From the NCBI RefSeq assembly GCF_004010195.1, contig NC_057757.1, positions 482,367 to 546,366 on the forward strand: a stretch of 64,000 nt of DNA, given 5' to 3'. The notes beneath the pieces were generated by a model. That model did not search any database, was not told where the DNA came from, and was given only the letters and a program-made list of their open reading frames with translations. This DNA is from Chiloscyllium plagiosum (lineage: Eukaryota). Shown in pieces: positions 946-62,478 of this stretch (position 1 is the stretch's first letter; every line of letters begins with the position of its first letter). Both the position numbers and the translations under genes were made by a program.

Positions 946-2613
946 GACACAAATATTTCAAATTGTTTTTTTTAATCTGGTGCACTCAAGAGTGGCAACT
1001 GATGCAGAGTGCAGCATCTCAACATGATGAATCAGAACAAGATTGTTCTGTGGGCAGAGAGCAGAGAACAATGAGTAATCTGAATCAAATAAGTTCTTAC
1101 TTACTGTGAATTTATGAAAGGCCTGGCTCTTCCTTCCCAGCTACCTGTGTTGTGCAGATTGCATCTGCAGATTGGGCTTTTGTTAAAAGTGCAACTTGAC
1201 CAAATATCAAAACTATGCAGAGACAATTGCTAAGAAAAGGTACATTTCCCTTTTGAAACCCCAGCGTGTTTTTCCAACTACACTGAGGGCTATTTTGCAA
1301 GTTGCACAAGAGACTTCACCACATCTCAGAAATGTCTGAAAGTGCCTCACAAGCACTGGATTTACTGTGAAGAGTTAATGTTCTTATAATGACGTGTTGC
1401 AGCTGAGTTGAGAGAAGTGAAATGGTTCCTCTCTTTGTCCCACTCCTCAACTGGTAGGTGATATTGCCAATTACATATCCATCTGTATTTGGCTCACTAT
1501 CAGAAACAAGTCTGCCAAGTTCTTTTAGTAACAAAGTAATAACTAGCTAATTTGAAACAAAACTCACTTGAGCAAAGGTGTAAAGATTATTAACAAAAAA
1601 CTTAAAGTGTGCAAATAAATGCAGGTACTGTTCTTGAAAACTGATACATATGCACCCACAACCTCCAAGTGCAGGATAGACATAAACTTTGCAGAGTATC
1701 ATCCTGAAAGTACTTTGGCCAAATTAAAGTTAAATTAAGTAAAGAACATCACAGATTGTCCAAATGTTGGCTATATTCAGAATTACATTAGACACATGCT
1801 GTTGGCATTGGGGCGTGTTTCTGGCGAGCTGATTTTGCAGACAGTGTGACAGATTCTGAATTTTCCCTAAGGAACCCTCCACTCGGGTTGATGAAGCTTT
1901 CCAGTGGGTTTTCAATTCACAAACTTTGATGAAATGGGTTTCAGAGAAAGACAAGGGATGGGCAAAGTCTGCTGCTTCAGGTAAGTTAGCTCACTGACTT
2001 AAGTTTGAAACCAATGGCTTCATTACATTCACAGACAGGGTCCTAGAGCTTTCTCAGAAAGTGTTGTCGCCTCAGTGACTCCAGTCAAACAGTTTGTATA
2101 CTTTGCAAGTGCAAACCTTTTTCCTGCTGCAGCCAGGACTTTTGTGCTGTTTCCAAAAGGTCCAACATATAGATATATGCCCCAGTCATTGGTATTCTGA
2201 ATTAACACTTCAAATAATATATCTTCACCACAGATGCCACCATCAGTTTAAATCTTCTCAAAATCCTGAATGTCAAATTTAAGTGACTGCACCCAACTAA
2301 GCAACCTGCCACCATTTTGGAAGCCTCAGAGAAAATGGGCTCCATGCAGCCTCCTCCCATGTCAATGTGCTTCGGAAATTATTATGTCCCATGTTACGGT
2401 CAAACCCTTGCTAAAACAAAATCACCGCAGTTCATCGAACCCTCTATCTGAATCAAACAAAAACAGAGATTGCTTGAGATACTATACCTAGGCATAAATC
2501 TTCGGTACAAAACGAAGAATAAAAAAGAAAAGCAGTTTCATTACTTGACAGTGATTCATAGAATAAGTTAGAAATAAGACATAGTTAAAAGGACAGACAT
2601 GATCATCAGACAG

Positions 2614-2740
2614 GCGAAAGTGAGGACTGCAGATGCTGGAGATTAGAGTCGAGAGTGTGGTGCTGGAAAAGCACAGCAGGTTAGGCAGCATCCAAGAAGA
2701 AGGAAAATAGATGTTTCAGGCAAAAACCCTTCGTCAGATA
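2614..2740 (-). mobile_element. Penelope-like terminal-repeat fragment with hammerhead-like core
   Basis: Same family as 42130-42255. Minus strand reads CTGACGA-aggg/cct stem-GAAAC (2737-2713). Confidence 0.6.
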
Positions 2741-2879: not shown

Positions 2880-3815
2880 TATTGGATTGAAAATTGGTTG
2901 GCTAATAGGAAACAAAGGGTAGTGATAAACGGCTCCATTTCGGAAAGGCAGGCAGTGACCAGTGGGGTACCGCAGGGATCCGTGCTGGGACCACAGCTTT
3001 TTACAATATATGTTAATGATATAGAAGATGGTATCAGCAATAACATTAGCAAATTTGCTGATGATACAAAGCTGGGTGGCAGGGTGAAANNNNNNNNNNN
3101 NNNNNNNNNNNNNNNNNNNNNNNNNNNNNNNNNNNNNNNNNNNNNNNNNNNNNNNNNNNNNNNNNNNNNNNNNNNNNNNNNNNNNNNNNNNNNNNNNNNN
3201 NNNNNNNNNNNNNNNNNNNNNNNNNNNNNNNNNNNNNNNNNNNNNNNNNNNNNNNNNNNNNNNNNNNNNNNNNNNNNNNNNNNNNNNNNNNNNNNNNNNN
3301 NNNNNNNNNNNNNNNNNNNNNNNNNNNNNNNNNNNNNNNNNNNNNNNNNNNNNNNNNNNNNNNNNNNNNNNNNNNNNNNNNNNNNNNNNNNNNNNNNNNN
3401 NNNNNNNNNNNNNNNNNNNNNNNNNNNNNNNNNNNNNNNNNNNNNNNNNNNNNNNNNNNNNNNNNNNNNNNNNNNNNNNNNNNNNNNNNNNNNNNNNNNN
3501 NNNNNNNNNNNNNNNNNNNNNNNNNNNNNNNNNNNNNNNNNNNNNNNNNNNNNNNNNNNNNNNNNNNNNNNNNNNNNNNNTTCACCCAGTGAGTGGTGGC
3601 TGTGTGGAATGCTCTGCCCCAGAGGGCAGTGGAGGCCCACTCTCTGGATTCATTTAAGAAAGAGTTGGATAGAGCTCTCAAAGATAGTGGAATCAAGGGT
3701 TATGGAGATAAGGCAGGAACAGGATACTGATTAGGAATGATCAGCCATGATTATCTTGAATGGCGGTGCAGGCTCGAAGGGCTGAATGGCCTACTCCTGC
3801 ACCTATTGTCTATTG
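2880..3815 (+). mobile_element. CR1-clade LINE 3' part (reverse transcriptase), spanning an assembly gap
   Basis: VTSGVPQGSVLGPQLF...KFADDTKLGG; CR1 3' end after the gap with a short ctattgt repeat tail. Confidence 0.85.
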
Positions 3816-3839
3816 TCTATTTCTGAGACTTACTCCCCA

Positions 3840-5165
3840 CTCTGGCCTCTGCTCCAGGGCAGCTGCTCCGCGCCAGCCTCCACTCTGGGATTTGCTTCCC
3901 CACACCAGCCTAGGCTATCGAACTGCTTCCCCACAGCAGCCTCTGCTCCAGAGCTGCTTCCCCTGCATCAGCCTCTGCTCCAGGACTGCTTCCCCTGCAC
4001 CAGCCTCTGCTCCAGGACTTCTTCCCCAACCCAGCCTCTGCTCCAGGACTGCTTCCCCACCCCAGCCTCTGCTCCAGGACTGCTTCCCCACAGTAGCCTC
4101 TGCTCCAGGACTGCTTCCCCACCCCAGCCTCTGCTCCAGGACTGCTTCCCCATGCCAGCCTCTGCTCCATGCACCAGCCCCTGTTCCAGAACAGCTCCCT
4201 GCACCAGCCTCTGCTCCAGGACTGCTCCATGCACCAGCCTCTGCTCCAGAACTGCTCCCTGCACCCACCCTGCTCCAGAACTGCTCCCTGCACCAGCCCC
4301 TGCTCCAGAACTGCTCCCTGCACCAGCCTCTGCTCCAGGACTGCACCCTGCATCAGTCTCTGCTCCAGGACTGCTTCTCCACGGCAGCCTCTGCTCCAGG
4401 ACTGCTTCCCCACGGCAGCCTCTGCTCCAGGACTGCTTCCCCATGCCAGCCCACGGCAGCCTCTGCTCCAGGACTGCTTCCCCATGCCAGCCTCTGCTCC
4501 AGAACTACTTCCCCTGCACCAGCCTCTGCTCCAGGACTGCTTCCCCTGCACCAGCCTCTGCTCCAGGATTGCTTCCCCACGGCAGCCTCTGCTCCAGGAC
4601 TGATTCCCTGCACCAGCCTCTGCTCCAGGACCGCTTCCCCTGCACCAGCCTCTGCTCCAGGACTGCTTCCCCATGGCAGCCTCTGCTCCAGGACTGCTTC
4701 CCCGAGCCAGCCTCTGCTCCAGGACTGCGTCCCCTGCACCAGCCTCTGCTCCAGGACTGCTTCCCCGTGCCAGCCTCTGCTCCAGGACTGCTTCCCCTGC
4801 ACCAGCCTCTGCTCCAGGACTGCTTCCCCGTGCCAGCCTCTGCTCCAGGACTGCTTCCCCGAGCCAGCCTCTGCTCCAGGACTGCTTCCCCTGAACCAGC
4901 CTCTGCTCCAGGACTGCTTCCCCTGAACCAGCCTCTGCTCCAGGACTGCTTCCCCTCACTGGCCTCTGCTCCGGGACTGTTCCCTGCACCAGCCTCTGCT
5001 CCAGGACTGCTTCCCCTGCACCAGCCTCTGCTCCAGGACTGCTTTTCCTCACTGGCCTCTGCTCCGGGACTGCTTCCGGGCTCCAGCCTCCCCCCGGGAC
5101 TCAATTTCCCGCACCTGCCTCCACTCTGGGACTGTTTCTCCCCCCCCATCCTCTGCTCCAGGATT
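3840..5165. repeat. GC-rich minisatellite, unit about 29-32 bp (ccagcctctgctccaggactgcttcccctgca), roughly 40 copies
   Basis: Direct inspection; explains the overlapping repetitive ORFs on both strands. Confidence 0.95.
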
Positions 5166-6739: not shown

Positions 6740-8185
6740 GATGTTTGAAGTGCAATGAATGTGTAATGAGGAAATATGGCATCTAATTATCATATAGCAA
6801 ATTCCCACAAACGACAAAATGAAAATAACTGGATTATCCATTTTTAGTGATGTTGGTTGAGAACACAGGACAAAAGAGAGGGGTCCCCTACTCCTCTATT
6901 CCACGCTCTTGAAAGGACAGATAGGCTTCGGTATAATTTTTTTTTCCCTGAAAGAATGCATCTCTCACAGGGCAGAGCTCCCTTGTTATTTAGCTTCTGA
7001 AAGTGCAGAATTTCTAAGTAGGAACCCTCCAACAGCACAGCACTAACCATCCATCAGTTCTGCACTCCCTCAGCACTGACCCTCCCATAGTGTGGAGCTC
7101 CCTCAGTACTGACCCTCCGGCAGTGTGGCAGTCCCTGAGTACTGACCCTCCAACAGTCGGTGCTCCCTCAGCACTGACCCTCCAACAGTGCAGCACTCCC
7201 TCCGCACTGACCTTCCAAAAGTGCGGCACTTCCTCAGCATTGACCCTCCGACAGTGCAGCACTCCCTCAGCACTGACTCTCGAAAAGTGCAGCACTCCCT
7301 TGGCACTAACCCTCTTGACAGTGCCCGCTCCCTCAGCATTGACCCTGTAACAATGCGACACTCGCTCAACACTGACCCTCTTGACAGTGCAATGCTCCCT
7401 CAGCACTGCCTCTCCAACAGAGCAGTGCTCCCTCAGAACTGACCCTCTGAAAATGTGGCACTCTGTCAGCACTGACCTCCAACAATGCAGCACACCCTCA
7501 GCACTGACATTTCAACAGTGCAATGTTCCATTAGCATTCACCCTTTGACAGAGTGGCACTCGCTCAGCACTGACCCTCTGACACTATGTCACTCGCTCAG
7601 CACTGACCCTCCGACAGTGTAGTGCTCCCCCAGTACTGCCCCCTGACAGTGCAGTGTTCCCTCAGCACTGATACACATGTAGTACAGCACTCCCTCAGCA
7701 ATGACCCTCCAACAGTGTGGCACTCCCTTAGTACTGACCCTCCAACAGTGCAGTGCTCCCTCAGCACTTACCCTCCAACAGCACAGTGCTCCCTCAGCAC
7801 TGATTGTCCAACAATGCAGCACTCCATCAGAACTGACCCTCTGAAAGTGCGGCACTCCCTCAGAACTGACCATCGAACAATGCAGTGTTCCATTAGCATT
7901 CACCCTTTCACAGAGCGACACTTGCTCAGCACTGACCCTCCAACAGTGTAGTACTCCCCAGTATTGAACCTCCAACGGTGCGGCGTTCCCTCAGCGCTGA
8001 TACATCTGTCGTACAACACTCCCTCAGCACTGACCCTCCAACAGTGTGGCGCTCCCTTAGTACTGACCATCCAACCGTGCAGCGTTCCCTCAGCACTGAC
8101 CCACCAACAGCGTGGCACGCCCTCAGTAATTACTTTCCAAAAGTGCGGCACTCCCTCAGCACTGACCCTCCAATAGTTCAGTAAT
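6740..8185 (-). mobile_element. DeuSINE-like element with expanded 33-bp array (array about 7020-8180)
   Basis: Reverse-complement Deu tail at 6740-6900 runs into cactccctcagcactgaccctccaacagtg units. Confidence 0.75.
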
Positions 8186-8284
8186 CCCTGAGCAGCATTT
8201 TTTCTAATTTTTGTACTGGCTCTGCATGGCCTCTGAGGGCCATGCGCATAACAGGAAGCAAAGAATAATCGAAAGTAGAAAGTA

Positions 8285-8835
8285 AGTCATAGAGTCATTG
8301 AGATGTACAGCACAGAAACAGATCCTTCGGTTCAACTTAACCAACTCGACCATCCAGTCCCATTTGCCAGCATTTGGCCCATATCCCTCTAAACCCTTCC
8401 TAATCATATATCCATCCAGATGCCTTTTCAATGTTGTAATTGTACCAGCCTCCACCACTTCCTTTGGCAGCTCATTCCATACACGCACCACCCTCTGTGT
8501 GAAAATGTCACCCCTTAGGTCCCTTTTAAATCTTTCTCACTCGCCTTAAACCTATGCCCTCTAATTCTGGATTCCCGTACCTCAGTGAAAAGACCTTGTC
8601 TATTTATCCTATCGATGCCCGTCGTGATTCTATAAACTTCTACAAGGTCACTCCTCAGCCTCTGACACTCCAGGAAAACAGTCCTCGCCTTTTCAGCCTC
8701 TCCCTATAGCTTAAACTCTGCAACATCCTTGTAAATCTTTTCTGAACCCTTTCAAGTTTCACAACATTCTTCCGATAGGAGGGAGACCAGAATTGCACAC
8801 AATATTCCAAAAGTGGCCTAACCCATGTCATGTAC
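8285..8835 (-). mobile_element. CR1/HER1 LINE 3' fragment
   Basis: RPLLEYCVQFWSP...LERVQKRFTRM and VRVWNELPKEVVEAG translations. Confidence 0.85.
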
Positions 8836-19751: not shown

Positions 19752-19936
19752 TTGTGGATGCTGGAGGTGTGAAACAAAAACAGAAAGAGCTAGATGAACT
19801 CAGCACACCTGCAGCATTTGTGGGGGAAAAAAAGCAGAGTCTGGTGACTCGTCATCAGAACTGATCTGATGTTCTGATGAAGAGTCACTGAATTAAAAAT
19901 ATTAGTTCTGCTTTCTGCCCAGAGTTTCTGCAGCAT
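19752..19936. mobile_element. Fold-back Penelope-derived repeat in AUNIP intron
   Basis: Inverted arms; central hairpin 19844-19888 with CTGATGA on both strands. Confidence 0.6.
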
Positions 19937-21196
19937 AATTTTGGTTACTGTAATTTATTTTAATTGTTTTCTGCTAATTCAGGCCAGACTAGGTGCTAAG
20001 GGATGCATTAGAAGCTTGGGGTGCCGCTGCAGAGATTCAATGGAGAAAGGTCACTTGTTTGAGGCCCTTCCATCATAGTACATCATGGAGTTGGTAACTG
20101 TGTAAAGCTCCCTCATGCTGTATGCTTGCTGTAGGTGAACAGAAGCTGTAATCGTAAGTGTGTTGCCACATACTGTGCTGAGACAAACTGACCTGCTTTG
20201 CACTTTATATAAAGTTGACTTGGGTATAAAATGTACTTTTACACATTTTATGAACAGCGCATATTTTTAGAAAAACAAAGCTTATTTGCTGGTTCAAACA
20301 GGCACTTAATACTTCGCTTCCAAACATCCCATCATTTCCTACACTTGCAAAGCAGAAAGAGAATCTGGTAACTAGGAATGACTCAGATGGTTCTGAGAAG
20401 TCATTTTGACATTTGCTAGTTGCCAAGGTGGAGTGGTTACATATTATTATTTGTGAAGTAAGCACTTCCACCCTATTGCCACCTTTTAAAACAAATCATA
20501 AAAGAACATAACAGTGTGTACCTTAAAATAAAAATCAAACACAAACATCATTGATTCAATGGGGATTGTTCTGCCTGGAGCAGAAGATTAAGGCAATATT
20601 CAATTCACAATTGAGGGGTTTTGATAGAATAATTAAGGAGAACCTTTCCAGTGTTGGGAACTAGAGTGATACTGATTGACAAAGGAAGATTAAGAGAAGT
20701 TATTTTACTCAATGAGTCATTGTGATCTAGAACACAGTGCCCAAATGGCCAGTGGAAGCAGATTTTATAGGAGCTTTCAAAAAGGAATTGGATAAATACT
20801 TGAAGGAGAAAACAACTTTTGATGCAGGTGACATGGGATTAATTGGACAATTCTTTCAAAGAGCCAGAATGGGCACAATGGGACGAATGTCTTCATTCTG
20901 TGCTGTATCATTCTAATGATGAGGCTGATCTAACAAGATCTCAAAAGAGTCATTTTGACCTTGAAACAGTAACTTTTGTTTTCTTTCTAAAGATGCTGCC
21001 AGACCTACTTAGATTCTGTTGAACCCCTTAGTCTCTTGTACCACAATCTCTACTGGATAACTTTCTCACAGTATATACTATAGGGTCCATGAGGGACTGC
21101 TCAGACTCCACAAACTCAGCATTGTTGAATTTGATTCAAATTTATGTTAGTCCCCACAGCTATCTCAATGACACATAGCAAAGTAGGTTTTCATAC

Positions 21197-21341: not shown

Positions 21342-21825
21342 CTGAAAAGAAATTTAAAAATAAAACAAGTTAGGAATAACTTGTCACCAGCGCAAACTGA
21401 AAAAATAATATCATTTACATATATCACTGCGTAGGCCTCAGGTAGAGTATTGTGGCTAATTCATGTCACCAGATTTCACAGGAAATTTGAGTAGTAGGCC
21501 ATTTGGCCCCTCAATCCAGCTCTGCCATTCAACTAGATCATGGCTAATCTTCTATCTCAATGCCATTTTTCCACATTATCCCTAAATTCCTTAATCTATT
21601 AACTTCTGCCTCAAATGCACTCAATGACTGGGCCTCCACAGTCCTCTGTGGTAGAGAATTCCACAGGTTCATCACCATCTGCATGAAGAGAATCCCTTCT
21701 GCTCCTATCTTAGCACCAACTGGCTGACCAGCAAAAAAGGTAAAGATCTTAAAAAAAAAAGCTATCAGGTGAGAAAGTTTATAGCCTTAAAACTTGTCCT
21801 TAAACAAAGTTAAAAATCACACAAC

Positions 21826-21940
21826 ACCAGGTTATAGTCCAACAGGTTTATTTGGAAGCACTAGCTTTCTGAGTGCTGCTCCTTCATCAGGTAGTTGTGG
21901 TTCTCCACAACCCAATCCAACACTGACATCTCCAAATCAT
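21826..21940 (-). mobile_element. Second Penelope-like terminal-repeat family with hammerhead-like core
   Basis: Minus strand CTGATGA(21890-21884)-aggagcagcactca-GAAA-gctagtgc; sister copy at 55490-55635. Confidence 0.55.
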
Positions 21941-23065: not shown

Positions 23066-23512
23066 ACTGCAGATGCTGGAAATCTGAAATTAAAAACAGA
23101 AATAGCTGGAGAAACATTAGAGTTAACATTTCGAGTCTACTCACCCTTCTTCACAACTGTGTTCTGAAGAAAGATATAAAAGAGACCTAAGGGGCAACTT
23201 TTTCACGCAGAGGGTGGTACTTGTATGGAATGAGCTGCCAGAGGGAGTGGTGGTGGCTGGTACAATTGCAACATTTAAAAGGCATTTGGATGGATATATG
23301 AATAGGAAAAGTTTGGAGGGCTTTGGGCCAGGTACTGGCAGGTAAGACTAGATTGGGTTGGGATATCTGGTCGGCATGGACGGGTTGGACCAAAGAGTCT
23401 GTTTCCATGCTATAAATCTCTATGACTGGACGCGAAACGTTAACTGTTTCTCTCTCTCCACAGATGTTGTCAGACCTGTTGAGTTTCTCCAGCAATTTCT
23501 GTTTCTGATTTC
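23066..23512. mobile_element. Fold-back Penelope-derived repeat interrupted by a CR1 3' end (about 23170-23425)
   Basis: Inverted arms (gctggagaaac / gtttctccagc). The CR1 tail lies between CTGAAGA (23164) and GAAAC (23434). Confidence 0.7.
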
Positions 23513-28888: not shown

Positions 28889-29004
28889 AGTGCCTCCATG
28901 ACCATGTGCCCCAAAATCCTTGCAGGAGGGATTATGGAACCAAAATTGACACAGTCACTTTAGGAGGCGTTAGACCCGCACACACCCTACAGTTCAATCT
29001 TTGA

Positions 29005-29990
29005 GGTCAGTGCTGAGGGAGAGGGCAGTGTCGGAGGGTCAGTGCTGAGGGAGAGGGCACTGACGGAGGGTCAGTGCTGAGGGAGAGGGCACCGTCGGAG
29101 GGTCAGTGCTGAGGGAGAGGGCACTGACGGAGGGTCAGTGCTGAGGGAGAGGACACTGTCGGAAGGTCAGTGCTGAGGGAGTGGGCACTGTTGGAGGGTC
29201 AGTGCTGAGGGAGTGGGCACTGTTGGAGGGTCAGTGCTGAGGGAGTGGGCACTGTTGGAGGGTCAGTGCTGAGGGAGTGGGCACTGTTGCAGGGTCAGTG
29301 CTGAGGGAATGGGCACTGTCGGAGGGTCAGTGCTAGGGAGCGCCGCACTGTCAGAGGGTCAGTGCTGAGGGAGAGGGCACTGACGGAGGGTCAGTGCTGA
29401 GGGAGAGGGCACTGACCTGAGGGAATGGGCACTGTCGGAGGGTCAGTGCTAGGGAGCGCCGCACTGTCAGAGGGTCAGTGCTGAGGGAGAGGGCACTGAC
29501 GGAGGGTCAGTGCTGAGGGAGAGGGCACTGTCGGAGGGTTAATGCTGAGGGGTTGGGCACTGTCAGAGGGTCAGTGCTAGGGAGCGCCGCACTGTCAGAG
29601 GGTCAGTGCTGAGGGAGTGGGCACTGTCAGAGGGTCAGAGCTGAGGGAGTGCCGCACTGTCAGAGGGTCAGTGCTGAGGGAGTGGGCACTGTCAGTGGGT
29701 CAGAGCTGAGGGAGCACGTGCTGTTGGAGAGTCAGTGCTGCGGGAACACTGCATTGTCAGGGTCAAGGCACACTGATAGCATGGGATAAAATATATCCCT
29801 TACCCTCCACTGCTGTGGCTTATTCCCACAGTGCTGTTTATGGGTGCTTGCTGTGCTCTAAACAGTGTCATTCTCTCATTCCCCACCCCATTACAACAGT
29901 GACTCCACTCCAGTGAAGCTTCTCACTGGCTGTAAAATGGTATAGGGCACCCTGAAACTGTGGAACCTGCACTCAAGAAGCCTTTTCATG
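29005..29990 (+). repeat. 33-bp (32-33) minisatellite array (29005-29760) followed by DeuSINE-like tail
   Basis: gggtcagtgctgagggagtgggcactgtcgga units, then gctgtttatgggtgcttgctgtgc...ttacaacagtgact...ggctgtaaa. Confidence 0.85.
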
Positions 29991-31074: not shown

Positions 31075-32062
31075 GCCAGGTGCCAAGCCAGAATCAGAAG
31101 GCACTGGGATCGAACCCCATTGTGGAGCTGAGGGAGCGCTGCGCTGTCGGAGGTCGGCGCTGGGGGAGTGGGCACTCTCAGAGGGTCAGTGCTGGGATAG
31201 TGGGCATTGTCGGACGGTCAGTGCTGAGGGAACACTGTGCTATCAGAGGGTTAGCACTGAGGGAACGTTGTACTGTCGGAGGGTCACTGCTGAGGGAGCG
31301 CCACACTTGCGGAGGGTTAGTGCTGAGGGAGCGTCACACTGTCGGACGGTCAGCGCTGAGGGAGCGCCGCACTGTCAGATGGTCAGTGCTGGGGGAGTGC
31401 ACATTATTGGACGGTCAGTGCTGAGGGAGCGCCGCGCTATCAGAGGGTTAGCACTGAGGGAGTGCTGCACTGTCAGAGGGTCAGTGCTGGGGGGGTGGGC
31501 ACTGTCAGAGGGTCAGTGCTGGGGAGTGGGCACTGTCGGACGGTCAGTGCTGAGGGAGCACTGTGCTATCAGAGGGTTAGCGTTGAGGGAATGCTGCACT
31601 GTCAGAGGGTCAGTGCTGGGGGAGTGGGCACTGTCAGAGGGTCAGTGCTGAGGGAGTGCCACACTGTCGGAGGGTCAGTGCTGGGGAGTGGGCACTGTCA
31701 GACACTCAGCCCTGAGGGAGCGCTGCACTGTGGGACATTGATCTTGTAGGTGAAGCATGAAACTGAAACCCTGTCTGCGCTCTCAAGTGGGTGTAACAGA
31801 TTCTGCAGCCAAAATTTCACAGAAAGGTTTTGGGAGATCCCCTCAGTGTCTTGGGATTGTTCATTTCTCCTGAACCAACAGTATGAAAGCAGTTGAAGTG
31901 GTCAGTATCACCTTGTGGTTTGTGGGATCTTGCTGTGCCCATGTTGGCTGCCAAGTGAGTGCCGTGATACAACAGGGATCAGAGTTCAAACACAGTTACC
32001 GTGTCATTACCTGTAAGGTGCTGTGCAAAGTCCGAGGTGGTGAAATACACGAGAGGAATGCA
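31075..32062 (+). mobile_element. DeuSINE-like element: tRNA-like head, 33-bp array (31125-31735), Deu domain and tail
   Basis: gaatcagaagg..gggatcgaacccca head; after the array ctgtctgcgctctcaagtgg...tgtgggatcttgctgtgccc...gaggtggtgaaa. Confidence 0.75.
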
Positions 32063-34635: not shown

Positions 34636-35189
34636 TGCTGATGACAGACTTGATCCAGTCTCAACTCCACTTTCTGACCCCCTCCCCCCCCCCCCCCATA
34701 ATCTCAAATCCCTCACCAATCAAACATCTAACTCAGCCTTGATATATTCAGTGACCCAACCTCCTCCTCCCTGAGGGAGAGAATTTCAAAACGTAACAAT
34801 CCTCCAAATTTTTTTTAATATATCGTATCATATTCACCAGATAAGGGTGACACTGGCTAGGCCAGCGTTTGTTGCCCATTTCTAATTGTCCAGAGGACAG
34901 TTTAAGAGTCAACCATATTTCTCTGGGTCTGGAGCTACCTGTAGGCCAGAACAGGTAAGGACTGCAGTTACTTTGCCTACAGTTCATCAGTGAACAATGG
35001 TTTTTTTGGTTGACATTAGACTCTTGATTCCAGATTTAGTTTTATTGAATTCGAATTCCAACATCTATCATCGTGGGATTCGAACCTGGGTCCTCAGATT
35101 AATAGGTTTGCAAAATTGCCATGAGGCTATCGCCTCCCCCAAATTCTTTGTCATTTCCTAAATCATTTCTTAAATGGGAACCAAAAGAG

Positions 35190-35625
35190 CTGTGGATGCT
35201 GGAAATCAGAAACAAAAGCAGAAATTGCTGGGGAAACCCAGCAGGTCAGGCAGCATCTGCTGAGAGAGAAAGCAAAGTTAAGATTTTGAGTCCAGTGTCA
35301 AAGATGGGGTGGTGCTGGAAAAGCACAGCCGATCAGGCAGCATCCGAGGAGCAGGAGGGTCAACATTTCAAGCATAAGCTCTTCATCAGGATTCCTTATG
35401 CTCGAAATTTGATCCTCCTGCTCCTGAGATGCTGCCTGACCTGCTCTGCTTTCCCAGCACCACGCTCTTTGACTCTGATCTTCAGCAACAGCAGTCCTCA
35501 TTTTCTCCATTTTGGGTCCAGTGACCCAGTTGTGAAGAATGCTGGCTGGACCCGAAATGTCATCTCTGTTTTCTCTCCAAGATGCAGACAGATCTGCTGA
35601 GCTTTTCCAGCAGTTTCTGTTTCCC
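35190..35625. mobile_element. Nested fold-back Penelope-derived repeats (inner element 35298-35508)
   Basis: Two levels of inverted arms; 15-bp flanking direct repeat attttg(a/g)gtccagtg at 35283-35297 and 35509-35523. Confidence 0.7.
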
Positions 35626-36734
35626 ATCTCTTAAAAGGGACATCCCTAATTTTCAAGATGTGCTCCCTCTTCCTAGGTGTCCATCCTGAGAGCAAACATC
35701 CTCTCAGAGTCCACCTGTCAAATCTCATCAGGGTCTTATATATGTTTGAAAAAGATCACCTCGCATTCTTTCTTGGGCATCATTGGCGAGTCCAGCATTT
35801 GTTGCCTATCCCTAGTTGCCCCTTGAAATGTGTGTCTTGCCTGCCCATTCCACAGGGTGTCAACCATAATGCTGGTCTAGCGACCCATGTAGGTCAGACT
35901 GGATAAGAATGGCAGATTCCCCCTCTCCAGAAGGACATAATGAACCAGATGAGATTTTACAGCAACCAACATGGTCACAGTCACCATTAAATTAGCTTTC
36001 AACTCCAGATTTAATTGGATTTAAATTTCACCATCAGCCATGGTGAGATTCAAACCCAAATGACCCAGGACTTCAGGGTGCTGGACCAGTCATGTTGCTG
36101 ACACACCACCACATCCTCAATTCTTTCAAACTCTAGTGAGGCCCAACCTGTTCAACCGATCTGCTGTAGGAAAGGCCGTCATCCCAGGAATCAGTCAAGC
36201 AAATCTCTCCTGAATTGTCCCGGTACAAAAGGGGGGTCCCTCCTGAAGTGGGGGCGTCTCAGAGCTGAAGCTGCTAGCTACTGGCCTGGAAGACAACGAT
36301 CCCTCTCCCTGGGCTGTATCTGGTAAACGAATTTTTATTGTACCCTACAAGCCTAGGAAGCCATGTTACTTGGCTGAGAGCAGAGGACCAGGACTCGGAC
36401 AAAAGGAAGGAGACGCTTTTGCGGATGAAGAGTTGGCACACAGGTTCTGTAGGAACGAGCAGTTTAATTAAACAGGTCACCTCTTATAATCTGCTGCCTT
36501 GATTTCAGTGCTTGTGAATAAGAGCTATTGTTGGAAATATGGTTGTGTGACCTCACACGTTTCATTAAGTCCCAACTTGTCAGTTCTTGCCCACCCTGGT
36601 CCCGTGAAAAGGCTTTTTTTAGGATTTCAGAATGCCTCTTACATAACTGTGCTTGCTTTATTTAATTTTCTTTCACTCGATGCTCTGGATGCTCAAAGTT
36701 CCGAAAGAATGACCTAGGTTCTTCCAGATGAAGC

Positions 36735-37925
36735 TCTCCTTTTGAAGTGTAGTAACACACTGCTGTAATGTACAAGATGTGGCAGTAACTTTGCCTAAGC
36801 TTACCCAGGTTCTACCTTTTTCCTGTTGATGGATAAATATTGGTCAAAAAGTAGAAGGGGGAACTTGCCCAGCTCTTTGAGGAATCGCTCTACAACATCT
36901 TGTGTCCACATATCAGTGCAGACAGTGCGTCAGTTTGAATTCTCATCTTTAAAAAATCATCTCCAACAACATGGCACTCCCTCAGTGCTGACCCTCCGAC
37001 AGTACGGTACTACCTCAGCGCTGAACCTCTGACAGTGCGGCTCGGCCTCAGCACTGACCCTCTGACAGTGCCCACTCCCTCAGCACTGACCCTCCGACAG
37101 TGCAGCGCTCCCTCAGCGCTGACTCTCCGACAGTGCGACGCTCCCTCAGCACTGAGCCTACGACAGTGCGGCGCTCCCTCAGCGCTGACCCCTCCGACAG
37201 TGCCCACTCCCTCAGCACTGACCCTCCGACAGTGTGGTGCTCCCTCAGCACTGACCCTTCGACAGTGCGACGCTCCCTCAGCACTGAGCCTATGACAGTG
37301 CGACGCTCCCTCAGTACTGACCCTCCGACAGTGCGACGCTCCCTCAGTACTGACCCTCTGACAGTACGGCGCTCCCTCAGTACTGACCCTCCGACAGTAC
37401 GGCGCTCCCTCAGCACTGACCCTCCGACAGTGCAGCCCTCCCTCAGCACTGACCCTCCGACAGTACGGCGCTCCCTCAGCACTGACCCTCCGACAGTGTG
37501 GCGCTCCCTCAGCACTGACCCTCCGACAGTGCCCACTCCTTTAGCACTGACCCTCCGACACTGTGGCACTCCCTCAGCACTGACCCTCCAACTGTGCGGC
37601 TCTTCTTCAGCACTGACCCTCCGAACAGTGCGGCACTCCCTCAGCACTGACCCTCCGACAGCGCGGTGCTCTTTCAGTGCTGACCCTCCGACAGTGCAGC
37701 ACGCCCTCAGCTCTGACCCTCCCCGACAGAGCTCTCTTTCTCCCTGACAGCACTGACCCCTGACAGTGTCCTCTGATAGTGCAGTGGTCCCTCAGCACTG
37801 ATCCCCCCCCCGAAAATGCGGCACTCTCTCTCAGTGCTGACTCTCCCAACAGTGTGGCGCTTTTTCACTGCTGACCCTCCGACAGTGCGGCGCTGTCTTG
37901 GCACTGACCCTCTGATAGTGGAGCG
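36735..37925 (-). mobile_element. DeuSINE-like element with expanded 33-bp array (36960-37920)
   Basis: Reverse-complement Deu tail at 36735-36960 contiguous with the array. Confidence 0.75.
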
Positions 37926-38382
37926 CTATAGTTGTATAGTTGTGAGCTGTGGACACAGAGGTGGGGCACTACCCAACATCCACAACCAAAATTACAATTA
38001 GCCATGACGTGTCTGTGACCTCTCCCTGTATCATATGTTTTGGAGGAGCCCGTAAGAAATGGACAAACTGATATTTTGGTGTCGGAACAAGTTTCTCCAA
38101 CAGTTTACAATGATTGGTAGTGTCTGGTCACATTTTCCAATGGGAGTGTTTTTGTCGCAATGAGACGCTCAAATAGATTTGGGTATGCTGTCAGCAGTTT
38201 AATTCCCTCCCATTGTCTGATGTGATGAATTATTGAGTGTGACCTTCACGTGTTGTATGTGATAAAGTCCTGGTAGGGTGAGGCAGGGAGGCATGGTCAT
38301 GCTTTGTGTGACGGTACAAAGACTCTGAATAAGTCTGTCCCCAAAGGCAACAAGGGAATTAACCCTTGGTTTCCCAATAAGT

Positions 38383-39285
38383 CCAGTCTGGCAGGACCTC
38401 ACTTTTAAAACTCGGTGTCCTTTGTTTCGAGTCTTTTTATGGTCTCGTCCTTATCTCTCCAGTCTACAACTCTCCGAGATCTCCTCGAATTCCAACCTCT
38501 TGACAATCCTCGGATTCCCATCACATCACTAGTGGCAGCCATGCCTTCAGCTGCCTGAGCCCTGAGCACTGGAATTCCCTCCCTAAACCTCTCCTCCTCC
38601 CTCTCTCTCCTCTCTTACTCTCAAGCTTCCTTTCTCTATCTCTATCTGTATCTCACTCGCTTTCTCTCTCCCTCTCCTCTCTCACTCTATCTCAGTATCT
38701 TTCACTTTCTCTATCTCTCTGTGTATCTCTGTCTCTCTTTCTCTCACTCTCTCTCCTTTTGCTCTCATTCTTTCTATCAATCTGTCTCTCTCCCGTTCTC
38801 TCTCTTTCTCTCTAGCCCCCCTTTCTCTCTTGCCCCAGTCTGGCAGGACCTCACTTTTAAAACTCGGTGTCCTTTGTTTCGAGTCTTTTTATGGTCTCGT
38901 CCTTATCTCTCCAGTCTACAACTCTCCGAGATCTCCTCGAATTCCAACCTCTTGACAATCCTCGGATTCCCATCACATCACTAGTGGCAGCCATGCCTTC
39001 AGCTGCCTGAGCCCTGAGCACTGGAATTCCCTCCCTAAACCTCTCCTCCTCCCTCTCTCTCCTCTCTTACTCTCAAGCTTCCTTTCTCTATCTCTATCTG
39101 TATCTCACTCGCTTTCTCTCTCCCTCTCCTCTCTCACTCTATCTCAGTATCTTTCACTTTCTCTATCTCTCTGTGTATCTCTGTCTCTCTTTCTCTCACT
39201 CTCTCTCCTTTTGCTCTCATTCTTTCTATCAATCTGTCTCTCTCCCGTTCTCTCTCTTTCTCTCTAGCCCCCCTTTCTCTCTTGC
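38383..39285. repeat. Tandem duplication, period 452 bp, containing a CT-rich tract
   Basis: 38383-38833 is repeated at 38835-39285; ORFs starting at 38721 and 39173 share identical N-termini. Confidence 0.92.
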
Positions 39286-41605: not shown

Positions 41606-41961
41606 TATGCACTTCTGGAGGAGGCTAGAACTCTGAGACAATGCCTGATAAATCCAATGGGAAATTAAGGAGAAGCCTCTTACCCCCTGTCCCGAGAGAC
41701 GCTCCTACAGGGAGTGGTTGAGGGGATGCTGCTGATACATGGCAGGGGAGATTCTGGATAAACATAATGGAGCAAGGAACAGAAGGAGAGGCTGATAGTG
41801 TGAGCAGAAGAGGAGATGGGTGGGACAGAATGCAGAGCAGATGGGCCAAATGACCTGCTTCCGTGCTGTAAAATATTGTGTAATTCTGTACTATTTTACT
41901 TGAATAGCAAGAGGCTATCAGCACTGGATTATCTGGGGTCAGGTTTTGATAGGTTTGATAG

Positions 41962-42255
41962 ACAAACCAACCCAACCACCCCGTGGCTCAACACTTCAAC
42001 TCCCCCTCCCACTCCACCAAGGACATGCAGGTCCTTGGACTCCTCCATCGCCAGACCATAGCAACACGACGGCTCCTTCCACCTATCGCATTTCCAACGC
42101 CCCTCCCCCAAGTCCCTCCTCCCTACCTTTTATCTTAGCCTGCTGGACACACTTTCCTCATTCCTGAAGAAGGGCTCATACCCGAAACATCGATTCTCCT
42201 GTTCCTTGGATGCTGCCTGACCTGCTGTGCTTTTCCAGCAACACATTTTCAGCTC
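41962..42255 (+). mobile_element. Penelope-like element remnant: endonuclease C-terminal peptide plus terminal repeat with hammerhead-like core
   Basis: 41962-42072 translates TNQPNHPVAQHFNSPSHSTKDMQVLGLLHRQTIATRR (PVAxHFN typical of PLE GIY-YIG endonucleases); CTGAAGA-A-GGG/CCC-GAAAC at 42164-42188. Confidence 0.75.
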
Positions 42256-42491
42256 AGTCAGGCTTTGATATCTTGGTATCCAACTTCCCACAGCAACAGA
42301 ACACCACTACTCCAGAATACAATTCTGAAATTGGTCCCACTGTTTCTGAATCCTCAGAATATGTGGGAGTCTTCCCTTTAGAACAGAGAAGATTCAGAAT
42401 CATTCAGCAAATAAGGGGAAACCGTTCCTAGTGGCAGGAGGATGAGGAACCAGAGGGACACCGATTGAGGAGAGGAGAAGGAGAATGATAG

Positions 42492-43309: not shown

Positions 43310-44185
43310 GTCTAAAGGCTGAAGCCACAAAATCAGGGGTCCAGGGTCTGAGCTCTGATCAAATGCTGAGGGAATGCCTCCGGAGCACCGCATTGTCGGA
43401 GGGTCAGTGCTGAGGGCGTGCAGCACTGTCAGAGGATCAGCGCTGAGGGAGCGCCGCACTGTCGGAGGGTCAGCGCTGAGGGAGCGCTGCACTGTCGGAT
43501 GGTCAGTGCTGAGGGAGTGCTGCATTGTCGAAGGGTCAGTGCTGAGGGAGTGCCGTACTGTCAGACAGTCAATGCTGAGGGAGTGCTGCACTGTCAGGCG
43601 GTCAATGCTGAGGGAGGGGGCACAGTCGGAGGGTCAGTGCTGAGGGTGTGCAGCAGTGTCAGAGGGTCAGTGCTGAGGGAGCACTGCATTGTCGGAGGGT
43701 CAGTGCTGAGGGAACACTGCATTATCGGCGGGTCAGTGCTGAGGGAGCACCGCACTGTCGGAGGGTCAGTGCTGAAGGAGCACCGCACTGTCGGAAGGTC
43801 AGCGCTGAGGGAGCGCCGCACTGTCAGAGGGTCAGTGCTGAGGAAGCGTCGCACTGTCAGAGTGTCAGTGTTGAAGGGGCACTGCACTGTTGGTGGTAAG
43901 TGCTGAGGGACTGCCGCACTGTCAGAGGGTCAGTGCTGAGGGCATGCAGCACTGTCAGAGGGTCAGTGCTGAGGGACTGCCGCACTGTCAGAGGGTCAGT
44001 GCTGAGGGACTGCCGCACTGTGGGAGGGTCATTAGGAGTGTTCTTAATTTATGCCATCCTGTCACCGCTATTTGTGGAAGAGCTGTGGATCAGCACAAGC
44101 ATTAGAGCAGGGGCAGTAAGTTCTGTGTTTAGATGTATGGTAATCTGCAGAGGAAAAGAAAGACACTATCAAAATGTAACACTGT
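43310..44185 (+). repeat. 33-bp minisatellite array (43360-44030) within a decayed DeuSINE-like element
   Basis: gggtcagtgctgagggagcgccgcactgtcgga units; decayed tail gctatttgtggaagagctgtg. Confidence 0.85.
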
Positions 44186-49825: not shown

Positions 49826-51228
49826 CTGCTGGACAAAGAATGCACAGTGTGAGGAGTCACCCATTTAAGGCAGAGATAAGGAACTTTTCTTACTGGGGCA
49901 GTAGTGAATCTCTGGAATTTTAAAAAATTCATTCACTGGCATCGCTGGCTGGGCCAGCATTTATTGCCCATCCCTAATTACCCAGAGGGCAGTTAAGAGT
50001 CAACCCCTTTGCTGTGGGTCTGGAGTCACGTGTAGGCCAGACCAGGTAAGATGGCAGTTTCCTTCCCTGAAGGATATCAATGGGTTTTCCAACAATCAAT
50101 AACTGTTTCATAGTCATCATTAGAATCTTAATTCCAGATTTTAATTGAATTCAACTGCCACCATCTGCCATGGTTGGATTCAAATCCGGGTCCCCAGAAC
50201 TTTAGCTGGGTCTCTGGACTAACAGCTCACCATGCCCATTTACAAAGGTTGGGGCAGCCTGGAGAGACATGAACAATAAGAGACTTTGGGGACAGTGAGG
50301 TCTGCAGATGCTGGAGATCAGAGTTGAGAGTGTGGCGTTGGAAAAGCACTAGATCAAGCAGAATCCGAAGAGCAGGAAAATCAACGTTTCGGAATAAGAG
50401 ACTGCATGTTTTATTGACATGATAAAAGCACACATCTGGATTGGGGTCCAAGAGGGGCCAGCACTCTTAAGGGTCAGAGAAACGCGATAGCATTGATTCA
50501 GCACTCCTGTAGGTGGGGGTCCTTCTCCCCTGAAGTTTTTGCTGCAGAGGGCTTTTGAGGCAGGATCATTAAGTATATTCAAGACTGAGATAGACAAATT
50601 TCCAATCGGTAAGGGGACTGAGGGCTCTGGAGAAAAGGTGGGAGTTAAGGATCCTCAGGTCAATCACTGAAATGCAAAGTGGATTGGACAGACTGAGTGG
50701 CCTACTCCTGTTCATGTGACCATCATCTGGGTCGCTCTGATTCCAGCCATCATCATTGGCAACTGTGTCACCACAGTCATTGGCCCTGAACTATCAAAAC
50801 TCCCCCTCACCTAAACCTCTCCACATCTCTCTCTCTGCTTTAAGACTCTCCTTAAGATCAGATCTCTTTGGCCAAGCGTTCGACCTGACCTCAGAATCAG
50901 ACTCTGTCTGATAATCCTGCGATGGATCTCGGCATTAAGTCATTTCCATGTTTATCCTGTGTATATTTAAGGGGAAACAGGCATCATTTTAAGGGAGGCT
51001 AGGGGCTTGGTGCTTCATTGCAATGCTATTTGACACTCCCGTTGGTTCTTGCACTAAATGTCATCCCTATATTGGGATGGTTTGAGGGGCACTGTTGGGT
51101 GTGGGGCACAGACTGACGTTGTGTCCATGGGGCAAGGTAAACCAGCCACACATTTTAACAACTCCCCATCATCACCACAAAGTCCCTGAATGTGCTGATA
51201 CCAGGGAGTTACAAGCTGGTTTACTCAC

Positions 51229-54764: not shown

Positions 54765-56340
54765 GCAATAGGACTCGTGTACTGAGGTAGTACGGGCTGA
54801 GGTTAGAAATGGGAAAGGAGAGGTCACTCTGTTGGGAGTTTTCTATAGGCCTCTGAAAAGTTCCAGAGATGTAGAGGAAAGGATAGCAAAGATAATTCTG
54901 GATAGGAGCGAGAATAACACAATAGTTGTTACGGGGAACTTTAACTGTCCAAATATTGATTGGAAATATTATAGTTTGAGTACTTTAGATGGGTCAGTTT
55001 TTGTCCAATGTGTGCAGGAGGGTTTCCTGACACAGTATGTCGACAGACCAACAAGAGGTGAGGCCACATTGGATTTGGTACTGGCTAATGAACCTGGCCA
55101 GGCTTTAGATTTGGAGGTAGGTGAGCACTTTGGTGATAGTGACCACAATTTGGTTATGTTTACTTTAGCGATGGAAAGGATAGGTATATACCGCAGGGTG
55201 AGAGTTATAGCTGGGGGAAAGTCAGTTATGATGCGATTAGACAAGACTTAGGATGCATAGGGTGGGGAAGGAAACTGCAGGGGATGGGCAAGGTGACCGA
55301 ACAGGTAGATGAGGGTAAAGTGGTTGATGTGGTGTATATGGGTTTCAGTAAAGTGTTTGGTAAAGATCCCCATGGTAGGCTATTGCACAAAATACGGAGG
55401 CATGGGATTGAGGTTGATTTAGCAGGTTGGCTCAGAAATTGGCGAGCTGAAAGAAGGCAGAAGGTGGTGGTTCATGGGAAATGGTCATACTGGATTTGGA
55501 GACGCCGGTGTTGGACTGGGGTGTACAGAGTTAAAAATCACACAACACCAGGTTATGGTCCAACAGGTTTATTTGGAAGCACACTAGTTTTTGGAGCACT
55601 GCTCCTTCTTCAGGTGTTGTGTAATTTTTAACTTGCTAAGATTCTTGGTAGTGTGCACGAGCAGAGAGATCACAGTGTCCATGTGCGTAGATCCCTGAAA
55701 GTTGCCACCCAGGTTGATGGGTTGTTAAGAAGTGTGTCAGCTTTTATTGGTAGAGGGATTGATTTCGGAGCCATGAGGTCATGCTGCAACTGTACAAAAC
55801 TCTGTGCGGCTGCAAATGGAGTATTGCGTACAGTTCTGGTCGCCGCATTATAGGAAGGATGTGGAAGCTTAGGAAAGGGTTCAGAGGAGATTTACCAGGA
55901 CGTCGCCTGGTATGGCGGGAAGGTCTTATGAGTAAAGGCTGAGGGAACTGAGGCTGTTTTCATTAGAGAGAAGAAGGTTGAGAGGTGACTTAATAGAGAC
56001 ACATAAGATAATCAGAGGGTTAGATAGGGTGAATAGTGAGAGCCTTTTCCTTGGATGGTGATGGCTAGCATGAGGGGACATGGCTTTAAATTGAGGGGTG
56101 ATAGATATAGGACAGAGGTCAGAGGTAGTTTCTTTACTCAGAGAGTAGTAAGGGTGTGGAAAGCCCTGCCGCAACAGCAGTAGACTCGCCAACTTTTAAG
56201 GGCATTTAAATGGTCATTGGAAAAACACATGGATGAGAATGGAATAGTGTAGGTTAGATGGGCTTCAGATTGGTTTCACAGGTTTCCACAACATCAAGGG
56301 CTGAAGGGCCTGTACTGTGCTGTAATGTTCTGTGTTCTAT
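54765..56340 (+). mobile_element. Internally deleted CR1 LINE (APE endonuclease joined to RT and 3' end)
   Basis: GVFYRP...GNFNCPNIDW...PTRGEATLDLVL...FGDSDH (endonuclease), then KVTEQVDEGKVVDVVY (RT). Confidence 0.9.
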
Positions 56341-61561: not shown

Positions 61562-62478
61562 AATAGAGGTACAGTTAGTAAGTTTGCAGATGACACCAAA
61601 TTTGGAGGTGTAGTGGACAGCGAAGAGGATTACCTCAGATTACAACAGGATCTTGACCAGATGGGCCAATGAACTGAGAAGTGGCAGACGGAGTTTAATT
61701 CAGATAAATGCGAGGTGCTGCATTTTGGGAAAGCAAATCTTAGCAGGACATACACACTTAATGGTCAGATCGGAGGGAGTGTTGCTGAACAAAGAGACCT
61801 TGGAGTCGCAGGTAGATAGGATAGTGAAGAAGGCGTTTGGTATGCTTTCCTTTATTGGTCAGAGTATTGAGTACAGGAGTTGGGAGGGCATGTTGCGGCT
61901 GTACAGGACATTGGTTCGGCCACTGTTGGAATATTGCGTGCAATTCTAGTCTCCTTCCTATCGGAAGGATGTTGTGAAACTTGAAAAGGTTCAGAAAAGA
62001 TTTACAAGGATGTTGCCAGGGTTGGAGGATCTGAGCTGCAGGGAGAGGCTGAACAGGCTGGGGCTGTTTTCCCTGGAGCGTCGGAGGCTGAGGGGTGACC
62101 TTATAGAGGTTTACAAAATTATGAGGGGCATAGATAGCGTAAATAGACAAAGTCTTTTCCTGAAGGTTGGGGAGTCCAGAACTAGAGGGCATAGGTTTAA
62201 AGTGAGAGAGGAAAGATATAAAAGAGACCTAAGGGGCAACTTTTTCACTCAGAAAGTGGTATGCGTATGGAATGAGCTGCCAGAGGATGTGGTAGAGGCT
62301 GTTACAATTGCAGCATTTAAGAGGCATTTGGATGGGTATATGAATAGGAAGGGTTTGGAGGGATATGGGCCGGATGCTGGCAGGTGGGACTAGATTGGGT
62401 TGGGATATCTGGTTGGCATGGACGGGTTGGACCGAAGGGTCTGTTTCCGTGCTGTACATCTTTATGACTCTATGACTC
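61562..62478 (+). mobile_element. 5'-truncated CR1/HER1 LINE with ctatgact tail
   Basis: KFADDTKFGG start; RPLLEYCVQF; KLEKVQKRFTRMLPG. Confidence 0.92.

Follow-up and report, generated by a model that had tools for sequence, protein, structure and literature searches.

A probable fossil of a minimal type I hammerhead ribozyme in a Penelope-like element of a shark genome

Position 42164 of the DNA analysed here (the window, a stretch of 64,000 nucleotides) opens a series of letters that resembles a hammerhead ribozyme core and lies close to coding sequence of a Penelope-like element (PLE), raising the question of what kind of ribozyme this is, how its helices pair, and whether this copy could still work. 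An earlier note on the same DNA had proposed that several dispersed copies form one shark family of hammerheads, that the hexamer following the GAAA(C/T) box changes between copies yet stays palindromic, and that this hexamer is a helix III loop through which two copies dimerise. The four strings on which it drew (42164-42194 and 23434-23444, and 2737-2707 and 35389-35359 on the minus strand) all lie at those coordinates. Our analysis indicates that 42164-42195 is very probably a decayed minimal type I hammerhead lying in the pseudo-LTR of an endonuclease-bearing chondrichthyan PLE, probably of the Neptune clade, and most likely a dead fossil. The class itself has been known since 2014 (PMC4209133); the register of the motif, the origin of its variation and the families to which the window copies belong differ from the earlier proposal.

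Table 1. Hammerhead-bearing pieces in the window and anatomy of the copy at 42164
Feature	Coordinates	Strand	Remarks
Family A copy	2613..2739	-	begins at core; 12/12 core letters; helix I unpaired; C,A at 15.2/16.2
Decayed family C inverted pair	19772..19931	both	cores 19874 (+) and 19858 (-)
Decayed family C piece	20948..21017	+	without CUGANGA box
Family B copy, core 21890	21804..21900	-	12/12 core letters; G,C palindrome; both helix II end pairs lost
Family C inverted unit	23066..23511	both	minus core 23154 (C3 to G); plus box 23164, GAAA 23434
Family C inverted unit	35180..35628	both	plus core 35532, C3 to G; host of family A insertion
Family A inverted unit	35298..35508	both	minus hammerhead 35389 head to head with plus copy starting inside helix II
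Probable 14-bp target-site duplication, left copy	41938..41951	+	13/14 letters identical to 42257-42270
PLE GIY-YIG endonuclease coding-end remnant, 38 codons	41962..42075	+	97% identity to P0001; 5' truncation just upstream
3' untranslated/pseudo-LTR sequence	42073..42159	+	joins endonuclease remnant across internal deletion near 42072
Helix I 5' strand, positions 2.4-2.1	42160..42163	+	partners 42192-42195
Catalytic box C3-A9 and extra unpaired A	42164..42171	+	12/12 core letters in this copy
Helix II, 4-nt loop	42172..42183	+	3/4 pairs remain in this copy
G12-A15.1 box, two-letter helix III remnant, U16.1, C17	42184..42191	+	register of Fig. S3, PMC4209133
Helix I 3' strand, positions 1.1-1.4	42192..42195	+	second half of the hexamer of the earlier note plus one base
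PLE tail 3' of ribozyme, to insertion boundary	42196..42256	+	common to other family A pieces
Probable 14-bp target-site duplication, right copy	42257..42270	+	pairs with 41938-41951
Family A piece	50289..50398	-	starts inside helix II; without CUGANGA box; C,G kept at 15.2/16.2
Family B copy, core 55613	55491..55621	-	5-bp helix II, 4-bp helix I; G12 to A

The copy at 42164, hereafter the index copy, sits 89 nt after the endonuclease remnant on the same strand (Table 1). Translation of this remnant yields a peptide that matches residues 306–343 of P0001, a PLE protein assigned by its source to Chiloscyllium punctatum, at 37 of 38 positions, which bears out the claim that a PLE endonuclease peptide adjoins one of the copies. 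P0001 itself gives a sub-threshold GIY-YIG match, and a protein search with it returned 94 longer relatives, the majority of which carry a reverse transcriptase (RT). Because a Pfam search of the 38-residue remnant found no match, we assigned it to PLEs through P0001, and on this protein match 41962-42075 is read as the end of a PLE in a shark-like genome. The match ends at residue 343 of 359, 16 residues before the C-terminus, and the depth of mapped contigs dips at 42070-42079 in three runs; the two observations fit an internal deletion near 42072, whose size we infer.

At the outer boundaries of the insertion, mapped-contig depth falls to about zero from 42260 in three runs, and a 14-bp direct repeat brackets the whole unit. 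This repeat is a probable, not a certain, target-site duplication, as a search with identical geometry at 2000 random places found an equally good match at 66 of them. Just inside its left copy, nine bases (41952-41960) repeat the end of the duplication; at this 5' junction they may be filler or another small duplication. The described anatomy of PLE insertions includes truncation, tails and inverted partners (10.1101/2021.04.23.441226; PMC11167929). We also considered the frame that runs through helix II and the tail as the start of a PLE, and found no convincing match to any of 95 PLE proteins.

Inside the hammerhead, the four helix I positions of the index copy read C-G, U-A, a U.U mismatch and A-U, and the 5' strand has no alternative letter at 4% or more of depth in three runs, among the rows listed. 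The extra unpaired A after the C3-A9 box is typical of minimal hammerheads (PMC4209133). At 42180, 98–99% of mapped depth in three runs reads G, from which we conclude that helix II of family A has a fourth pair. The two-letter helix III remnant (42188-42189) is C,A in the index copy and C,G in its family. Cleavage is predicted between 42191 and 42192, after C17.

How the letters after GAAA are to be read depends on the register. Minimal PLE hammerheads usually lack loop 3, and their GAAA box is followed by two mutually complementary letters, U16.1, H17 and then the 3' strand of helix I (PMC4209133). Placed in this register, the hexamer of the earlier note consists of N16.2, U16.1 and H17, the base at the cut site, followed by the three letters that open the 3' strand of helix I. 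We compared the two registers on the 12 window copies that have a GAAA-type box, a thirteenth being dropped because of a one-base deletion. The U-H pair of letters is present in 11 of 12 copies in the published minimal register, whereas the hexamer-loop register gives a closed helix III together with U-H in one; the hexamer is a perfect palindrome in three (the index copy and two family C copies). Among 16 non-redundant motifs from related elements, described below, the corresponding counts are 15/16 for U-H in the minimal register, 1/16 for the hexamer-loop register and 0/16 for a palindromic hexamer. By its place in this register, the dimer-forming palindrome would be the four letters A15.1-N15.2-N16.2-U16.1, not the hexamer that follows. 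Positions 15.2/16.2 read CG in families A and C and GC in family B; eight of the 12 window copies have CG, TG or CA there, and 11 of the 16 relatives keep a Watson-Crick combination. Self-complementarity fails in the index copy, which marks it as a decayed member.

The mis-registered hexamer also accounts for the failure of the earlier note to find a helix I in cis. With the register corrected, 18 of 27 helix I cells are Watson-Crick in the nine window copies that have both strands, against a permuted mean of 10.7 (fraction 0.007, with three families only), and sliding the partner strand reduces the count to 1–8. Families A and B open helix I with C-G and family C with U-A; the second pair is U-A or A-U. 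Read from this pairing, helix I exists but is short. Within family A it is weak: 0.44 of cells pair, no better than when family C 5' strands are combined with family A 3' strands, and at the third pair U faces U in most of the family A depth. Run X1 has A at 42194 in 40% of depth and T at 42196 in 32%, which suggests a subfamily whose helix I would have four perfect pairs; A at 42194 is rare in runs X14 (1%) and X15 (10%). A MAFFT alignment of eight window copies, which puts both family B rows one column out of register, showed no excess of pair counts over shuffles (pairing 337/500, covariation 190/500).

Relatives outside the window provide an independent view of the same structure. We fetched 86 loci from an alignment of P0001 and 15 relatives, 47 of which were eligible in that they reach the end of the endonuclease and continue for at least 400 bases beyond. 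In 19 of these 47 loci a core with helix II follows 103–175 nt after the protein match on the sense strand; the opposite strand gave 0/47, and the shuffle mean was 0.06. The 16 non-redundant motifs have 40 of 45 helix I cells in Watson-Crick pairing versus 23.9 on permutation (0/20000), although eight of the 16 form one family by reading, so that the permutation overstates their independence. These motifs span about 40% protein identity, from invertebrate relatives to the shark. Several of them, namely the eight-member family, read like the Acropora row in Fig. S3 and Table S1 of PMC4209133, which Table S1 labels Neptune. The relatives also have a Cys-rich linker between the RT and the endonuclease, partial in P0001, of a kind shared by Neptune and Nematis (10.1101/2021.04.23.441226). 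Together, the Acropora-like motif family and the linker suggest that the index element probably belongs to the Neptune clade. Loci L080–L086 are animal-type PLE genes in two genomes filed as bacterial MAGs, one of which (L085) has a hammerhead, and probably reflect host contamination.

A search of 62,680 called bases with profiles built from the window's own copies recovered 14 pieces that carry part of the motif. By their helices these divide into three families: five pieces belong to A, two to B and seven to C. Of nine scored copies, five keep all 12 core letters, one of these five being split by an insertion. What stands of the proposed single shark family is therefore that the copies in this shark-like genome are minimal type I hammerheads carried by PLEs; the string at 23434 belongs to family C, and a CR1-like LINE fragment (23166-23427) separates it from its box at 23164. 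This LINE 3' fragment is 88% like 62208-62469, and the hammerhead it splits has no helix II 5' strand. The fragment shares letters with the hammerhead at both ends, which suggests microhomology joins. The pseudo-LTR location is directly visible for family A; within the window, no coding remnant adjoins the copies of families B and C.

The insertion at 35168-35640 is nested, with an inverted unit of family A interrupting a family C hammerhead at its helix II and GAAA box, in keeping with the reported tendency of PLEs to insert into PLEs (PMC6765202). The inner unit is flanked by a 15-bp duplication (35283-35297/35509-35523) and the outer unit by a 12-bp duplication (35168-35179/35629-35640), each with one mismatch. 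The minus-strand hammerhead at 35389 keeps 12/12 core letters, with U,G at 15.2/16.2. Folded alone, this copy forms helices I and II (z -1.6); within the inverted unit, 35298-35508 folds as one long hairpin and the hammerhead pairs have probability 0. A search for target duplications around ten insertions gave long matches in three, short matches of 8–9 bp in three and none in four. Copies at 2739, 35390-35395, 50398, 55611-55635 and 21898-21938 start at or near the core or turn inverted there, and mapped contigs switch strand near 42156-42169. Cores on the same strand are 1.3–20 kb apart and of mixed families. Across the window, no contiguous copy has at once a complete core, an undamaged helix II and self-complementary letters at 15.2/16.2; the suggestion that the copies are inactive or need a partner is probably correct.

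Large minisatellite arrays with units of 30–33 bases occupy 3760-5130, 7030-8290, 28900-29720, 31140-31730, 36940-37930 and 43360-44040, and the 33-base family occurs in both orientations. Two segments of 300 bases, 38383-38682 and 38835-39134, lie 452 apart and show 100% identity, which points either to a tandem duplication of very recent date or to an artefact of assembly. On the minus strand, a long open exon at 18045-19262 matches Pfam PF15334 (Aurora kinase A and ninein interacting protein, E 1e-11), and upstream of this exon the same strand carries the hammerhead pieces at 19858, 21890 and 23154, perhaps in an intron.

Why, then, does the hexamer vary? We mapped three contig sets on 42020-42290 (68,988, 82,585 and 14,268 records), in a mapping that favours the window's own letter, A at 42189. 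G is the commonest letter at 42189 in all three runs (51, 53 and 57% of depth), and on this ground the palindrome 42189-42194 in the index copy is best explained by a single CpG deamination, G to A. Letters other than G make up 43–49% of depth at this position, above the level at other CpGs; we prefer to read this high share as mapping bias towards the window letter, and it may instead represent a true C,A subfamily. At the CpGs 42183-84, 42188-89 and 42191-92, C-to-T or G-to-A changes occur at 4–15% of depth, and the non-CpG core letters have no variant at the 4% threshold among the rows listed. The catalytic G12 sits in a CpG and reads A in 9–15% of depth, as expected if inserted copies decay freely. 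The window as a whole is depleted in CpG to 0.29 of expectation.

The sixth letter of the hexamer (42194) is T, A or C depending on the run, with A at 40, 1 and 10% and C at 7, 3 and 11% of depth, and its variation is unlinked to any first-letter change shown. Judged from these letters, the changes of the hexamer between copies track CpG decay together with the helix I differences among families, and the palindromic hexamer of family C may have arisen from a family A-like one through a change at the same CpG and a matching change at position 2.1. The decay products C,A (42188-42189) and T,G (35365-35364) are mutually complementary, so that heterodimers are possible in principle; the window contains no C,A and T,G pair of the same strand and family. 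A general lesson is that CpG decay of a C-G palindrome can mimic covariation.

Taken together, these observations suggest how the parent element may have worked. Its hammerhead motif would have lacked a helix III of its own, and in a tandem transcript two copies would pair through the self-complementary A-C-G-U, each lending its U-H and helix I 3' strand to the core of the other, so that the cut would fall after C17. Published assays found no cleavage of monomers and low cleavage of dimers (PMC4209133; PMC6765202), and in the anole element cleavage took place only with the element's protein, while insertion in vitro did not need cleavage (PMC11167929); from this work we infer that the shark element's protein was probably needed as well. 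For the index copy, reverse transcription would have begun in the tail and stopped inside the endonuclease gene, and the copy would then have lost an internal piece. Later, presumably neutral, decay would comprise the G-to-A change at the CpG of the dimer palindrome and the loss of one helix II pair. The index copy has no intact partner in the window, and the window copies are most likely fossils. As a monomer the index copy has helix II pairs at about 0.24; its helix I pair probability of 0 and a fold no better than that of shuffles (z +1.0) count against the preferred reading.

A different reading accepts the structure and assigns it another role, namely that the motif is kept mainly as a structural or protein-binding signal rather than a working ribozyme, with weak catalytic variants amplified as subfamilies. 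Two of five family C cores, 23154 (-) and 35532 (+), share the C3-to-G change and possibly represent a dead subfamily that was propagated. The same change abolished cleavage in the anole element, whose insertion in vitro was independent of cleavage (PMC11167929), and Naiad and most Chlamys PLEs spread without hammerheads (10.1101/2021.04.23.441226). The U.U at the third helix I pair in most family A depth points the same way. Against this, the C3-to-G count comprises two copies only, dead variants could be mobilised in trans without any other role for the motif, and the persistence of core and covarying helix I from shark families to invertebrate relatives at about 40% protein identity argues for long-term selection on a catalytic fold. 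On balance we consider a mainly signalling role unlikely.

The proposal that the hexamer is a palindromic helix III loop, kept by covariation and mediating dimers, fares worse. The perfect palindromes in the index copy and two family C copies are in its favour, and a co-fold of two unchanged index copies does pair through the hexamer. However, this co-fold spans the predicted cut site and would block, not permit, cleavage; the required register is found in one window copy and one relative, palindromes are absent from the 16 relatives, and the sixth letter varies among T, A and C while G remains the commonest first letter. We regard this proposal as largely refuted and very improbable. Also very improbable is that the index copy is active or domesticated and cuts a host transcript. 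Its 12 core letters are intact, and pairing with a U,G-type copy, in which the CpG has decayed the other way, is conceivable. Its self-complementary pair and one helix II pair are lost, however, and the nearest same-strand core lies 6.6 kb away, belongs to another family and lacks C3. Moreover, of the 208 open stretches on the plus strand from 26.3 to 63.7 kb, 150 were searched against Pfam without a match, and this search showed no host gene over the copy.

The bare boxes CUGANGA...GAAA are not clearly above chance, with nine in the window; dinucleotide shuffles average 4.7, and 12 of 200 reach the count of the window. Requiring also 3 bp or more in helix II and U-H at four letters beyond the GAAA box, a descriptor set after the matches were seen, leaves three versus a mean of 0.095 (0 of 200 shuffles). 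Scans against the Rfam hammerhead models, a check proposed in the earlier note, covered the whole window and two short stretches and recovered no hammerhead family at E up to 10, an outcome that the note had listed among those refuting its proposal; they were run without a minimal hammerhead as positive control, and the miRNA-type matches in them reflect the inverted repeat. This negative counts for little in our view, since the published motifs had themselves been identified by a pattern descriptor. Pattern scans for the shark motif with its tail gave 0 matches in metagenome contigs and 0 in viral contigs. Despite the bare-box count and the Rfam result, a chance match in an ordinary repeat is next to impossible, as the core is common to three shark families with different helices, recurs with constant position and orientation in 19 of the 47 related loci, which we count as refutation, and belongs to a published class.

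The preferred reading, a decayed minimal hammerhead of a PLE pseudo-LTR, places the shark copies close to several described systems. The minimal hammerheads of metazoan PLE pseudo-LTRs (PMC4209133) share the CUGANGA box with an extra base, the G-C at the base of helix II, GAAA-N-N-U-H, self-complementary 15.2/16.2 letters, a short helix I (2–5 bp) and a place after the endonuclease end; they too are mostly solo and truncated, with some close pairs on opposite strands. The shark copies differ in their 4–5 bp helix II, in the mostly U.U third helix I pair of family A and in that all window copies are decayed, and the rows of Fig. S3 examined include no cartilaginous fish. With the Neptune PLE of Acropora digitifera (PMC4209133; 10.1101/2021.04.23.441226), relatives in the P0001 alignment share the motif type and the Cys-rich linker, whereas the shark copy keeps only 38 endonuclease codons and its clade assignment is indirect. 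The anole Poseidon element PAc (PMC11167929) likewise has a pseudo-LTR hammerhead followed by a tail that marks the start of reverse transcription; it belongs to another clade, and its cleavage was assayed, whereas the shark motif is known from sequence alone. Non-LTR retrozymes (10.64898/2026.07.22.740005) carry type I hammerheads related to those of PLE pseudo-LTRs, and one chondrichthyan genome is among those described. They are head-to-tail tandems with one hammerhead per unit, unlike the solo or inverted window copies, and we rejected a retrozyme origin on the spacing and mixed families of the same-strand cores.

We found no description of the shark PLE families A–C in the literature, a point on which the supplements of the 2026 retrozyme survey may bear. 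These families extend a known ribozyme class to particular shark PLEs, and the copy at 42164 alone adds little. The role of PLE hammerheads is presented in print as an open question (PMC11167929; 10.1101/2021.04.23.441226), and a genome with several high-copy PLE families would be good material for addressing it. If the motif were kept as a signal, it would be a protein-binding or boundary signal for retrotransposition, and with the very many copies in the shark, subfamily genetics alone could test its role.
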